DNA of 51,700 bases from Bacteroidales bacterium (GTDB lineage: Bacteria > Bacteroidota > Bacteroidia > Bacteroidales > M50B96), in assembly GCA_021739985.1 (NCBI GenBank), contig JAIPAR010000003.1, forward strand, positions 1 through 51,700, given 5' to 3'. Within the stretch, counting starts at the first letter, position 1, and each line of letters starts with the position of its first letter. Shown here in pieces: positions 12,651 to 49,729 of this stretch. The position numbers and the translations under genes were made by a program. Below the pieces are notes generated by a model, which was given only the letters and a program-made list of their open reading frames with translations, did not search any database and was not told the DNA's origin.

Positions 12651-13529
12651 TCAGGCTTTAAGTCGGTCAAATGCAGCAATGATTTTTTCCAGTTCTGCAT
12701 CTGATTTGAAAGGAATAACTATTTTTCCTTTCCCTTTATTGTTTCGGGTGAAATCGATTTGATTGCCAAAGAAGGTTTCAAGTTGGGTATGAAGAGCGGC
12801 ATAAGCTTCCGGGTTAGAAGATTTGGCCGGTTTTGTTTTTTTAGGTTGAGGGTTTAAAAATTTTCGAACTATCTCTTCCGTTTGACGAACAGATAGTTCT
12901 TTTTCAATCACATCGGCTGTAATCTTAAGTTGCATGGCCTCCTGCTCAATGGCGACAATAGCACGTGCATGTCCCATGGAGATTTTTTTATTCTGAAGTC
13001 CTTTTTGAATTTCCGGAGGAAGTTTAAGTAATCGAAGGTAATTAGTGACTGTACTTCTTTTTTTTCCAACTCGCTCAGAGAGAATTTCCTGAGTGAGAGA
13101 GAATTCTTCAATCAAACGGTTATAGGAAAAAGCGATTTCGATGGGATTTAAATCTTCACGCTGGATATTTTCTACCAGAGCCATTTCCAGCATTTCAGTA
13201 TCGTTTGCTTTGCGGACATAGGCAGGAATACTGGTCAAACCAATCATCTTTGCGGCCCGGGTTCGGCGCTCGCCGGAAATAATCTGAAATTGGTCAGGGG
13301 CAATTTCCCGAACAGTAATGGGTTGAATAACGCCCAATTCTTTGATGGAAGCTGCCAGTTCGAGTAAAGCGTTCTCATCAAATTTCTCACGGGGTTGGTG
13401 TGGATTGATGATGATTTTACTTAGTTCAATATCGTTGCTGATACCGGAAACGGGATGCTGTTGCTTTTCTGCATCATCAATTAATGCTCCCAGTCCTCTG
13501 CCTAAAGCGGTCTTTTTTGTAGCTACCAT
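12651..13529 (-). CDS. parB: chromosome partitioning protein ParB/Spo0J
   Basis: 292 aa. ParB box (GERRTRAAKMIGLTSIPAYV) and HTH region (TQEILSERVGKKRSTVTNYLRLLKLP). Confidence 0.9.
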   Translation of the reverse strand: MVATKKTALGRGLGALIDDAEKQQHPVSGISNDIELSKIIINPHQPREKFDENALLELAASIKELGVIQPITVREIAPDQFQIISGERRTRAAKMIGLTSIPAYVRKANDTEMLEMALVENIQREDLNPIEIAFSYNRLIEEFSLTQEILSERVGKKRSTVTNYLRLLKLPPEIQKGLQNKKISMGHARAIVAIEQEAMQLKITADVIEKELSVRQTEEIVRKFLNPQPKKTKPAKSSNPEAYAALHTQLETFFGNQIDFTRNNKGKGKIVIPFKSDAELEKIIAAFDRLKA

Positions 13530-13530
13530 C

Positions 13531-14331
13531 TTAGTTAACAGATTTTTGATTTGCGTTCATCTTGGTGAGACTGTTCTTTTGCAGCAGCTCTCTGGCAAGA
13601 TTAAGGTAGGATTTCGATCCTGAAGAATTTGCATCGTATAGCAAGGCAGGTTTTCCGTAACTTGGAGCTTCTCCCAGTGTCACATTTCGATTGATGATGG
13701 TTTCAAAAACCATATCCCGGAAATGTTTATTTACCTCTTCAACAACCTGATTTGAAAGGCGTAAGCGTGAATCAAACATCGTCAGCAAAAATCCTTCGAT
13801 TTGTAAATCAGGATTGAGGCGACTCTGAATAATTTTGATTGTATTGAGTAGTTTTCCAAGTCCTTCAAGTGCAAAGTACTCACATTGAACCGGAATAATG
13901 ACAGAATCGGCAGCTGACAAGGCATTTACAGTAATCAAACCTAAAGAAGGAGAACAATCGATTAAGGTGAAATCATAATCCCGGCTTATTTCTTCCAGGG
14001 CTAATTTCATGACTTTTTCGCGATTGGTCATTGAAAGCATTTCAATTTCTGCTCCCACTAAATCAATGTTGGATGGAATTAAATCAAGACCTTCTACCTC
14101 GGTATGTAAGATAGCATCCTTTGCATTTACTCCGTCAACCAGGCATTCGTAGATGCCGGTTTTTACATTTCGAACATCAAATCCTAGTCCTGAAGTTGCA
14201 TTTCCCTGGGGGTCAGCATCTACCACCAGCACCCTTTTTTCAAGGGCTGCCAGACTTGCGGCCAGATTAATCGCGGTTGTTGTTTTCCCAACTCCCCCTT
14301 TCTGATTTGCTAATGCAATTATTTTAGACAT
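13531..14331 (-). CDS. parA: chromosome partitioning ATPase ParA/Soj
   Basis: 266 aa. Deviant Walker A IALANQKGGVGKTTTAINLAASLA. Its stop is separated from the parB start by a single base. Confidence 0.9.
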   Translation of the reverse strand: MSKIIALANQKGGVGKTTTAINLAASLAALEKRVLVVDADPQGNATSGLGFDVRNVKTGIYECLVDGVNAKDAILHTEVEGLDLIPSNIDLVGAEIEMLSMTNREKVMKLALEEISRDYDFTLIDCSPSLGLITVNALSAADSVIIPVQCEYFALEGLGKLLNTIKIIQSRLNPDLQIEGFLLTMFDSRLRLSNQVVEEVNKHFRDMVFETIINRNVTLGEAPSYGKPALLYDANSSGSKSYLNLARELLQKNSLTKMNANQKSVN

Positions 14332-31947: not shown

Positions 31948-32020
31948 ATGGTTAATGATAAATGGTTAATGATTGATGGTTAATGATTGATGGTTAAAGA
32001 TTGATGGTGAATGATTATTG
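31948..32020. repeat. 14-bp tandem microsatellite (about 5 copies of ATGGTTAATGATTG)
   Basis: Units are ATGGTTAATGATAA / ATGGTTAATGATTG x2 / ATGGTTAAAGATTG / ATGGTGAATGATTATTG. It abuts the stop of the YqhA-like gene and lies upstream of the ABC-F gene. The same motif forms the leader of array 2 at 49198. Confidence 0.75.
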
Positions 32021-33004: not shown

Positions 33005-33132
33005 TTTCGATAGATAATAAATATAGTTACTTGCTAATATACTGCAACTTGAATGGGGATTTGAAATTTTACGTCGAATGCAGGTTCTATTTTGTGGTTT
33101 AGTACTATTGATTCATAGCTGGGATATTTTTT

Positions 33133-33840
33133 AGCCACGGATTCACGAATTGAGTAGCCACGGATTCACGAATTGGTTAAGCCACGGATTCACGAATTGG
33201 TTAGCCACGGATTCGCGAATTGAGTAGCCACGGATTCACGAATTGGTTGAGCCACGGATTCACGAATTGAGTTAGCCACGGATTCACGAATTGGTTGAGC
33301 CACGGATTCACGAATTGGTTGAGCCACGGATTCACGAATTGGTTGAACCACGGATTCACGAATTGGTTAAGCCACGGATTCACGAATTGAGTTAGCAACG
33401 GATTCACGAATTGGGTAGCCACGGATTCACGAATTGGGTAGCCACGGATTCACGAATTGGTTGAGCCACGGATTCACGAATTGGTTAAGCCACGGATTCA
33501 CGAATTGAGAAAGCCACGGATTCACGAATTGAGAAAGCCACGGATTCACGAATTGAGAAAGCCACGGATTCACGAATTGAGAAAGCCACGGATTCACGAA
33601 TTGGTCGAGCCACGGATTCACGAATTGAGTTAGCCACGGATTCACGAATTGAGTAGCCACGGATTCACGAATTGATAAGCCACGGATTCACGAATTGATT
33701 TAGCCACGGATTCACGAATTGGTTGAGCCACGGATTCACGAATGTGTTTGCCACGGATTCACGAATTGATTTAGCCACGGATTCACGAATTGAGAAAGCC
33801 ACGGATTCACGAATTGGTTGAGCCACGGATTCACGAATTA
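33133..33840. repeat. tandem repeat array 1: about 30 copies of a 23-24-bp unit (core AGCCACGGATTCACGAATTG plus a 3-4-nt variable tail)
   Basis: Counted directly: 30 units. The 20-nt core is essentially invariant, with only 3 units carrying a single core substitution. Each unit is followed by one of about 10 different tails (AGT, GTTA, GTT, AGTT, GTTG, GGT, AGAA, GTCG, ATA, ATTT). One unit near the 3' end is broken (cacgaaTGTGTTTg). Non-coding. The last unit supplies the final codons and stop of the MFS gene. Confidence 0.9.
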
Positions 33841-35977: not shown

Positions 35978-36423
35978 TTTTTATATCGTTTTAGATTATA
36001 TCGTTTACGATACAAAAATATATATCTTTTTCATCATGGAAGAATTTATGTTCTTAAAAAATGATAAAAAGCCAATATAAATAAAGGACACAAAATCCCT
36101 TTGGGATCGCATCATAAAACGATAACAAATTGCGATATACAAATAATCCCTTCGGGATAAGACCATTAAATTAAATCAGTAGCTCAGATAAAAAAATTAG
36201 ATAGAGAGTCGAAGTGCCATAAGGTTGGAAATCAAAGAATCAGCCTTTTGGCGCTTCTTTTGCGCGGGTTGCCAGCATTCTATTCCAGAGATAGCAGCGT
36301 GGAACCCGCGCCAGAAAAATAGGAAGCATCCGTTTTCTATTAATATTGCACCTCAACGACCTTAGGCTGAGCACGTCTTTGTCTAGACCCATAATCCTAA
36401 TAGTAATCGGGAGGATGGGCTCA

Positions 36424-36575
36424 TCGCCAAATCAATAAAACCTTGAAGGTCTAGAAAGAGGGGATAATTGACCATTCAACTACCGATAACATTGAAGGTA
36501 TCGTGGTGCGCCTTTCAATAAAAACCTTGAAGGCCTAGACAGAGGGAATAATTGAAGATCAAACTACCGAAAACT
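36424..36575. repeat. two tandem direct repeats of about 65 bp, about 85% identical, inside an 840-bp ORF-free block
   Basis: TCAATAAAACCTTGAAGGTCTAGAAAGAGGGGATAATTGACCATTCAACTACCGATAACATT versus TCAATAAAAACCTTGAAGGCCTAGACAGAGGGAATAATTGAAGATCAAACTACCGAAAACTT. Followed by a perfect 16-nt palindrome cccgaaagctttcggg (36585-36600). Confidence 0.5.
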
Positions 36576-36818
36576 TTTCCCGAAAGCTTTCGGGATTAAC
36601 CTTAGCGAGCGTTAGGGATTGGAGTGGAAAGCCCGGAGCGAGCCACTCCTACGAGACGGAGATAGGAGCGAGGAAAGAGGATTTCACGGATTTGAGCGGA
36701 TTACACGGGGGCGCGAGCGAGGACTTGAAACGGAAAGCCCGACCCGAAGGGGAACGCCCAAAACAATTTGAAATATCGGGAAGATTAGAAAAGAAGATGC
36801 AAAAGAAATCAAGCTTAT

Positions 36819-49141: not shown

Positions 49142-49197
49142 CTTGTATAAAATTTAATCTATTCAAACATACAAAAGATTTATCAAGCAGGTTATAA

Positions 49198-49686
49198 TGG
49201 TTAATGATTAATGGTGAATTCGTGAATTCGTGGCAAAATCAATTCGTGAATTCGTGGCTGATTAATTCGTGAATTCGTGGCTTATTAATTCGTGAATTCG
49301 TGGCTTAATCAATTCGTGAATTCGTGGCTGATTAATTCGTGAATTCGTGGCAGATTAATTCGTGAATTCGTGGCTGATTAATTCGTGAATTCGTGGCTGA
49401 TTAATTCGTGAATTCGTGGCAAAATTAATTCGTGAATTCGTGGCAGATTAATTCGTGAATCCGTGGCTACTCAATTCGTGAATCCGTGGCTGATTAATTC
49501 GTGAATTCGTGGCTTAATCAATTCGTGAATTCGTGGCTTAATCAATTCGTGAATTCGTGGCTGATTAATTCGTGAATTCGTGGCTGATTAATTCGTGAAT
49601 TCGTGGCAAAATCAATTCGTGAATTCGTGGCAAAATCAATTCGTGAATTCGTGGCTTAATCAATTCGTGAATTCGTGGCTTAATCA
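49198..49686. repeat. tandem repeat array 2: 14-bp leader units followed by about 20 copies of a 23-24-bp unit (core AATTCGTGAATTCGTGGC plus a 5-6-nt variable tail). It is the inverted counterpart of array 1
   Basis: Leader ATGGTTAATGATTA ATGGTGAATTCGTG, then 20 units. Tails: AAAATC, TGATT, TTATT, TTAATC, AGATT, AAAATT, TACTC. The reverse complement of the core (GCCACGAATTCACGAATT) differs from the array 1 core at one position. Two units (49456-49500) carry aatCcgtggc, which is identical to array 1. Each unit contains two GAATTC sites. Non-coding, with stops in all plus-strand frames. Confidence 0.9.
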
Positions 49687-49729
49687 ATGAAATAACTTGC
49701 CTGAAAACGATCCTCCTTTTTCTTTAGAA

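Follow-up and report, generated by a model that had tools for sequence, protein, structure and literature searches.

A one-armed, highly amplified REP-like repeat array beside a GxxExxY nuclease gene in a Bacteroidales genome

The stretch of DNA analysed here (the window, 51,700 nucleotides of contig JAIPAR010000003.1, assembly GCA_021739985.1, Bacteroidales bacterium) carries a tandem repeat of 30 units, array 1, placed between the gene of a GxxExxY-family (PF13366) nuclease and that of a major facilitator superfamily (MFS) transporter, and a second, smaller array of the same kind, array 2. The array is best described as an intergenic repeat resembling REP (repetitive extragenic palindromic) elements, one-armed, highly amplified and tied to a different nuclease family. 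The core represents one of the two arms in a family of hairpin repeats, GC(CACGAATT)2, that is spread across many Bacteroidota and a few other phyla. The favoured explanation, to which a probability of about 0.6 is given, is that arrays 1 and 2 are a non-coding minisatellite derived from one arm of a palindromic repeat similar to REP sequences or to REPINs (REP doublets forming hairpins), the core being kept by a reader protein, for which the GxxExxY nuclease would be the likeliest candidate. A first-pass annotation of this DNA, made by a model from the sequence alone, had described array 1 but did not recognise its unit as a hairpin arm from a repeat family that brackets GxxExxY genes.

Tandem Repeats Finder, the program run that the first-pass annotation had proposed as a check on consensus and copy number, delimits array 1 at 33131–33839, with a period of 24, 29.9 copies, 90% matches and a score of 1026, and a unit-by-unit parsing gives 30 units with a length of either 23 or 24 bp. 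Of these, 27 contain a perfect copy of the 17-nt core CCACGGATTCACGAATT, and the remaining three depart from it by one base. Once the conserved G that precedes it is counted the core measures 18 nt and the linker 5–6 nt, so that the near-invariant core and variable tail seen in the first reading were described accurately to within one base. The linkers of array 1 fall into 11 types. When up to three mismatches are allowed, the motif is matched 50 times in the window, with 0.31 matches expected from shuffled sequences; all 50 lie within arrays 1 and 2 and there are no solitary copies. The core of array 1 contains an internal duplication (CACGgATT-CACGaATT), which is perfect in array 2 and in other genomes (CACGAATT-CACGAATT), and the elementary motif of about 8 bp that had been suspected is indeed an 8-mer. 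Runs of identical units, GAGAAA four times (units 16–19) and GGTTGA three times (units 7–9), had been taken as local expansion from their AGAA and GTTG tails, and they do point to local duplication.

Array 1 is real and is backed by independent short-read assemblies. Two Logan contigs of SRR12088351, both 100% identical to the window, end inside the array from either side, and a contig of SRR22388180 runs into it from the GxxExxY side; the number of units rests on the window assembly, as the contigs break inside the array. Regarded as a plain tandem repeat the array is ordinary, of the sort that breaks short-read assemblies and seeds spurious open reading frames (ORFs).

The core is under constraint. 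In array 1 mismatches affect 4 of 522 core positions versus 47 of 166 linker positions (Fisher p = 4e-27), which makes the core about 35 times less variable, and in array 2 the corresponding counts are 2/342 and 15/103 (p = 1e-8). One substitution or one indel suffices to connect the linker types with one another; core variants are few, and each is seen once, as would be expected if units whose core is intact were retained or copied again in preference. Because the core is so much less variable than the linkers, something appears to read it, and the constraint probably reflects a sequence-specific protein.

Further evidence came from a Logan contig of another sample (L127), which shares 96.0% nucleotide identity with the window over 4.5 kb and holds an array at the same position, upstream of a 98%-identical GxxExxY gene. 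The four cores visible in this contig are those of the window, the GGATTC variant included. All four visible linkers differ from the proximal four of the window, and two of the linker types are not present in the window at all. Since the relative carries an array at the same site, the array predates the divergence of window and L127, and since the linkers differ, its units turn over.

Array 2 is the same repeat family as array 1, in inverted orientation. Tandem Repeats Finder places it at 49217–49688, with a period of 23, 20.1 copies and a score of 667, and its linkers are of seven types. Two of its units (49450–49466 and 49473–49489) bear the GGATTC core typical of array 1, and the latter has the array-1 linker GAGTA as well, which points to a common origin of the two arrays or to exchange between them. 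The possibility that arrays 1 and 2 are the ends of a 15-kb mobile element was considered and rejected: the intervening genes are housekeeping ones (endonuclease III, a flotillin-like protein, a KamA-family radical SAM protein, TauE and proteins with type IX secretion system tails) and the array flanks share nothing.

The distribution of the family was determined with the exact 17-mer CCACGRATTCACGAATT in one genome per species, an excerpt of 8 kb being taken for each locus. The scan retrieved at least 119 loci, mostly from Flavobacterium species. Other carriers, among the matches listed, are Lentimicrobiaceae, Prolixibacteraceae, Salinivirgaceae, Chitinophagaceae, Saprospiraceae and Cytophagales, together with a few from Ignavibacteria, Chlorobiota, Chloroflexota and others. 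The sites within these loci comprise 72 inverted pairs and 80 single copies, almost never in tandem, and 146 of the 152 are intergenic (outside ORFs of at least 100 aa). Each inverted pair consists of a 5' arm GCCACGAATTCACGAATT, a loop and a 3' arm AATTCGTGAATTCGTGGC, and the stem often continues outward into flanking stretches of T at one end and of A at the opposite end. Among the matches listed the loops span 0–139 nt, save three of about 400 nt. The dispersed hairpins match no Rfam family, and the motif sequence was not found in the literature searched. The loci are scattered along Flavobacterium chromosomes, with up to five in one genome of Flavobacterium aquidurense among the matches listed. 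Small tandem versions are seen in a Flavobacteriales metagenome-assembled genome (MAG; L009), with three units, and a Lentimicrobiaceae MAG (L045) has two motif units on each side of a gene. In Flavobacterium chilense (L118, 1530–1970) a 158-bp unit made of a full motif hairpin and its flanks is repeated three times in tandem, an arrangement that recalls the ordered REPIN clusters of Pseudomonas.

A closer inspection of the three loops of about 400 nt showed that all of them are GxxExxY genes, 57–63% identical to that of the window; among the matches listed this PD-(D/E)XK nuclease of about 124 aa is the only gene seen inside or between inverted pairs. A fourth motif-flanked GxxExxY gene forms an AT-rich insert in a GC-rich contig of a Chloroflexia MAG (L014, 3100–3650), where hairpins stand on both sides of the cassette and the 8/9-mer CACGAATT is present three times per arm; gene and repeats look like a single unit acquired horizontally.

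The association also holds when the search starts from the gene. GxxExxY homologues at 65–70% identity were taken with their flanks, giving six independent loci, and in five of them the motif lies within about 100 nt on both sides of the gene, usually as a complete hairpin. These five are from a Cloacimonadota MAG (L128), Caldithrix (L134, of which L151 is a diverged syntenic counterpart), two further MAGs (L135 and L138) and a Thermodesulfobacteriota MAG (L136). The number of chance matches expected in such flanks is about 0.001, as estimated from how probable the 18-mer, with up to three mismatches, is at any one position. The sixth locus, from a Chlorobi MAG (L150), is organised in the same way but uses another duplicated 8-mer, GCAGCTAATGCGCTAATG, whose hairpin (490–600 and 1010–1110) flanks a GxxExxY homologue of 66% identity; repeat and protein may thus co-vary. 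In further GxxExxY homologues the over-called N-termini are translated motif (HEFTN, MHEYK or VA..), and annotators should mask the motif family in Bacteroidota because it yields false N-terminal extensions and hypothetical proteins. In the Cloacimonadota MAG (L128–L133) the cassette has a KilA-N gene on one side and a type IIG restriction-modification gene on the other, and in the Thermodesulfobacteriota MAG it adjoins a Bro-N gene; both surroundings are defence or phage-like neighbourhoods.

The GxxExxY protein encoded beside array 1 scores 108 bits against PF13366 (cut-off 22) and 124 bits against TIGR04256 (cut-off 35), and residues D72, E82 and K84 are invariant. Its AlphaFold2 model has a pLDDT of 94.6, and its best structural matches in the PDB are Cas4 SSO0001 (E = 2e-4) and two exonucleases, lambda and RecE; when the PDB was searched by sequence, the protein gave no match. 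It is confidently modelled as an intact predicted PD-(D/E)XK nuclease with a Cas4/lambda-exonuclease-like fold. Array 1 lies some 128–129 bp from the gene, and the only sigma-70-like promoter match of the region (33065–33036) is found in the spacer between them. On the minus strand of this spacer (33075–33105), and at the same place in L127, there is a sequence that may be a decayed motif-family hairpin, ACCAC(A/G)AAATAGAACCTGCATTCGAC, of weak similarity and some 75–100 nt upstream of the GxxExxY start codon.

The history proposed for the arrays starts from the family unit GC(CACGAATT)2, which elsewhere occurs mostly as an inverted intergenic pair forming a perfect hairpin of 18–30 bp. One arm of such a pair, upstream of the GxxExxY gene, would have been amplified head-to-tail to about 30 copies, and the runs of identical units suggest that replication slippage or unequal recombination was the likely route. 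A sequence-specific protein would read the 18-bp core, so that only units with an intact core would be kept or re-copied while the 5–6-bp linkers would be free to drift. The GxxExxY nuclease is the most likely reader by analogy with the REP-associated tyrosine transposases (RAYTs) and their REP sequences, and it is the best candidate because it is the sole gene consistently flanked by the motif; on this analogy we infer that the nuclease recognises the core.

Several observations weigh against this explanation. No GxxExxY gene adjoins array 2, and the literature searched gives no biochemical evidence of GxxExxY proteins binding or cutting the motif. The usual cassette has a copy of the 5'-arm type just before the ATG and one of the 3'-arm type just after the stop codon, whereas the window has solely copies of the 3'-arm type, upstream and at least 129 nt from the gene, and no copy downstream. 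Array 1 is therefore not a simple cassette boundary, although L135 has a single 3'-arm-type copy 104 nt upstream of its GxxExxY gene. Most of the Flavobacterium hairpins have no GxxExxY gene inside their 8-kb locus. Large arrays are also rare in public assemblies: a three-unit pattern had one match only among 241 million metagenome records (L126, itself of three units), and viral contigs gave no tandem match, 11 of them having the motif and none of these a GxxExxY gene. This rarity may be an artefact of the data, because short-read assemblies, including the Logan contigs of this organism, break at such arrays. A wider version of the proposal holds that GxxExxY (PF13366) nucleases are the partners of undescribed cross-phylum REPIN-like hairpins, GC(CACGAATT)2 and its variants, that they recognise the core and mobilise or amplify it, and that the one-armed arrays of 20–30 units seen here come from core-dependent copying driven by the nuclease and not from passive slippage; it is offered tentatively, as less likely than not.

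Two of the alternatives accept the arrays as non-coding DNA but give them another origin or role. A neutral minisatellite, in which a chance duplication of an 8-mer grew by slippage, is read by nothing and resembles the dispersed hairpins without meaning, would account well for the GAGAAA and GGTTGA runs, which are classic slippage products, and would be in keeping with the abundance of short 7–8-nt tandem repeats in the intergenic DNA of Bacteroidota (183 in 131 kb) and with the lack of an assignable function for the array. Drift cannot, however, yield the roughly 35-fold difference between core and linkers, nor does it fit a 17/18-mer that recurs unaltered in different phyla and stands beside one and the same gene family in five of six gene-first loci, or cores that stay unchanged in a 4%-diverged relative in which every visible linker has changed; this explanation is considered unlikely. 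An array of host regulatory or architectural binding sites (iterons or decoys), in which a host protein bound to the 30 cores alters the expression of adjoining genes (MFS/MarR operon, GxxExxY, M1 peptidase) or the local structure of the chromosome, would be in keeping with the constraint, and the core holds a near-dyad, AATTCnnGAATT, typical of sites for dimeric proteins. The arrays stand just upstream of promoter regions as well (array 1 129 nt before the GxxExxY ATG, array 2 76 nt before the peptidase ATG), and the BrickBuilt arrays of Porphyromonas gingivalis show promoter activity (PMC4596501). On the other hand, the two arrays are oppositely oriented relative to their downstream genes, the 23/24-bp period is out of helical phase, and no regulator is linked to the motif save a generic MarR beside the MFS gene. 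Elsewhere the hairpins follow unrelated genes or separate them, in a wide range of taxa, and the motif travels with GxxExxY into a GC-rich Chloroflexia genome; this distribution suits a mobile cassette more than a regulon of the host, and a binding-site array is rated as rather improbable. A BrickBuilt-type miniature inverted-repeat transposable element, non-autonomous, derived from IS5 and with an internal 23-nt minisatellite, would share with the arrays the phylum, the 23-nt period, the intergenic location, a similar copy number, units with a conserved and a variable half and the presence of several arrays per genome. Its unit AGACCATAGTATCCTCTCATATG is unrelated to the core, which refutes membership and leaves a structural analogue; moreover, the flanks of arrays 1 and 2 have no common leader or tail, only chance 8–9-mers, and no IS5-like terminal inverted repeat GAGACCTTTGCA is found beside either array. 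At up to two mismatches the sole match to this repeat is inside the MFS coding sequence, and an origin of this kind is highly improbable.

The remaining alternatives place the function of the array in a product. A functional RNA array or CRISPR-like locus, whose repeats are transcribed and processed to small RNAs or form a structured RNA, could draw on the MFS transcript, which probably continues into the array because no terminator is predicted between them, and on the UUCGUGAA strand, which is self-complementary if G-U pairs are allowed. Against it, the linkers of 5–6 nt cannot be spacers, which measure about 26–72 nt, and the main ORFs of the window that were scanned against Pfam and NCBIfam include no cas, reverse transcriptase, transposase or integrase gene, only housekeeping ones. 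Rfam gave no match in and around array 1 even at E <= 5. For segments of three units folding shows no gain over shuffled sequences (z = +0.6 to -1.7), and for a 288-nt stretch the gain is only weak (z = -2.1 and -2.3). Both a CRISPR array and a structured RNA were rejected on these grounds, in line with the initial view that array 1 is not CRISPR-like, and an RNA-based function has a very small probability. Least probable of all, with a chance close to nil, is a coding tandem repeat, either a protein of QFVNPWL or IRESVA heptads or a C-terminal extension of the MFS protein. Two of the three minus-strand frames of the 24-nt unit do lack stops, as had been noticed, but units of 23 nt shift the frame, for which reason the longest ORF in array 1 reaches 77 aa only. 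Linker lengths differ between the window and its 96% relative, so the frame is not conserved; none of 5.8 billion protein sequences is similar to the QFVNPWL-repeat peptide; and the MFS gene terminates in the first unit it meets. The coding hypothesis was ruled out, and the heptad ORFs are spurious, as the first reading had held.

The 3' end of the MFS gene does overlap the array: its final two codons plus the stop coincide with the 9 nt at which array 1 starts on the minus strand, in agreement with the first-pass annotation, and the protein ends in ...PHPKSCNS (YILYIPHPKSCNS) before the stop. The further claim made there, that the repeat sets or remodels the C-terminus, stands insofar as the stop and two residues come from the repeat but is otherwise overstated. 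The nearest non-self orthologues (78% identical, from Bacteroidales MAGs) measure 388–397 aa, and their tails past the last transmembrane helix are not conserved (..IPKPENN, ..VFVSRK, ..IPKPKQ and ..ILKSAEKQL); none of the tails compared ends in KSCNS and all differ. As the tails are variable and 394 aa is within the normal range of lengths, the overlap exists but shows no consequence for the protein, a trivial effect of two residues in a variable tail, and it would be a by-product of the array endpoint. No syntenic MFS 3' end free of the repeat (an empty site) was found, the 78% orthologues having a different gene context.

Table 1. Position of the arrays, their flanking genes and adjacent features in the window.
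Feature	Position	Strand	Description
GxxExxY / PDDEXK_3 nuclease gene, 126 aa	32624..33004	-	Pfam PF13366 3.5e-31; TIGR04256 124 bits; D...ExK intact
Unique spacer, array 1 to GxxExxY start codon	33005..33133	-	about 129 bp; holds promoter match; kept in 96% relative
Array 1	33134..33839	+	30 head-to-tail 23/24-bp units, each an 18-bp core GCCACGGATTCACGAATT and a 5–6-bp linker
Overlap of last repeat unit and MFS gene	33831..33839	-	AAT TCG TGA = Asn-Ser-stop
MFS transporter gene, 394 aa	33831..35015	-	Pfam MFS_1 4.8e-43; 3' end reaches 9 nt into array 1
Heptamer tract TAATGRT x3	49196..49216		abuts array 2; same heptamer family as the tandem repeat at 31948–32016
Array 2	49217..49688	-	20 head-to-tail 23/24-bp units; core GCCACGAATTCACGAATT (minus strand), inverted relative to array 1

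Other short repeats are present in the window. Between the UPF0114 and ABC-F genes (31948–32016) a 14-bp tandem repeat, ATGGTTAATGATTG, is present in 4.9 copies and reads on the minus strand as heptamers AAYCATY. A coupling of the motif with neighbouring 7–8-nt tandem repeats was examined and discarded, since the apparent 3.4-fold enrichment is gone once the comparison is restricted to intergenic DNA, where 34 of the 183 tracts lie beside the motif versus 17.4% expected (p = 0.37). A gene-free stretch of 840 nt (35978–36818) contains a direct repeat with a spacing of 84 nt (36437–36493 and 36521–36577, 84% identical) and a match to the Flavo-1 RNA motif (36600–36748) that is below threshold (27.9 bits vs a gathering score of 42, E = 0.0014).

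Among known systems, the arrays conform to the generic definition of a minisatellite or variable-number tandem repeat, that is, head-to-tail units of 10–100 bp (30 in array 1 and 20 in array 2); the content of units and linkers differs between the window and L127, and short-read contigs break inside the array. Plasmid iterons and centromere repeats likewise consist of directly repeated units, about 22 bp long, whose invariant core is presumed to bind protein, but here the context is one of chromosomal housekeeping genes, a rep gene is lacking and the motif is found scattered over Flavobacterium chromosomes. A ParB/parS-like centromere array was rejected for the same dispersal, for a likeness to parS limited to a half-site of 5–6 nt and for the distance to parAB, 19 kb. 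The parB and parA genes of the window occupy 12651–14331; no canonical parS (TGTTTCACGTGAAACA, up to two mismatches) is found in its 51.7 kb, and three mismatches give a single match, at chance level. With CRISPR arrays the repeats share direct repetition at about 23 bp and a conserved repeat beside a variable segment; they differ in that this segment is of 5–6 nt, in the lack of cas genes among the scanned ORFs and in the single hairpins that represent the family elsewhere. BOX elements and bacterial interspersed mosaic elements (BIMEs) are intergenic repeats with a module that recurs in tandem in varying number, as in the arrays described here; BIMEs alternate the orientation of their REP sequences and BOX elements have boxA and boxC ends, whereas the units of these arrays all point the same way and terminal modules are lacking.

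The closest structural analogue within the phylum is BrickBuilt of P. gingivalis, an intergenic tandem repeat that has a period of 23 nt, reaches 22.8 copies and keeps one half of its unit conserved while the other varies (PMC4596501). Both are found in Bacteroidota as 23-nt direct repeats without true spacers, in about 20–30 copies and at several loci per genome, but BrickBuilt is restricted to Porphyromonas while the array core is widespread, and the unit sequences are unrelated. The closest functional analogue is the REP/REPIN-RAYT system of E. coli and Pseudomonas fluorescens SBW25 (PMC3116915, PMC3333891). In both cases the repeats are short, extragenic and mainly hairpin-forming inverted pairs, with single copies and ordered tandem arrays in addition; inverted copies flank one small gene, and the core is conserved while its surroundings vary. 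The extragenic position and the inverted pairing apply to the family as a whole, the arrays of the window being direct repeats themselves. In Pseudomonas, tandem arrays of REP units and REPIN clusters adjoin RAYT genes (PMC3116915). The differences are equally clear. The gene flanked here encodes a PD-(D/E)XK GxxExxY nuclease instead of an HUH Y1 transposase, and no Y1 transposase was found among the scanned ORFs of the window; the unit is a duplicated 8-mer and not a GC-rich imperfect palindrome; the core is common to several phyla, whereas REP sequences are genome-specific; and the array here reiterates just one arm, some 30-fold and without change of orientation. The association between motif and GxxExxY gene appears to be undescribed in the literature searched. 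It ties a large uncharacterised family (thousands of paralogues across bacterial phyla) to a conserved flanking DNA or RNA motif, offers a concrete candidate substrate for these nucleases and suggests a second, nuclease-based counterpart to the relationship between REP sequences and RAYTs.

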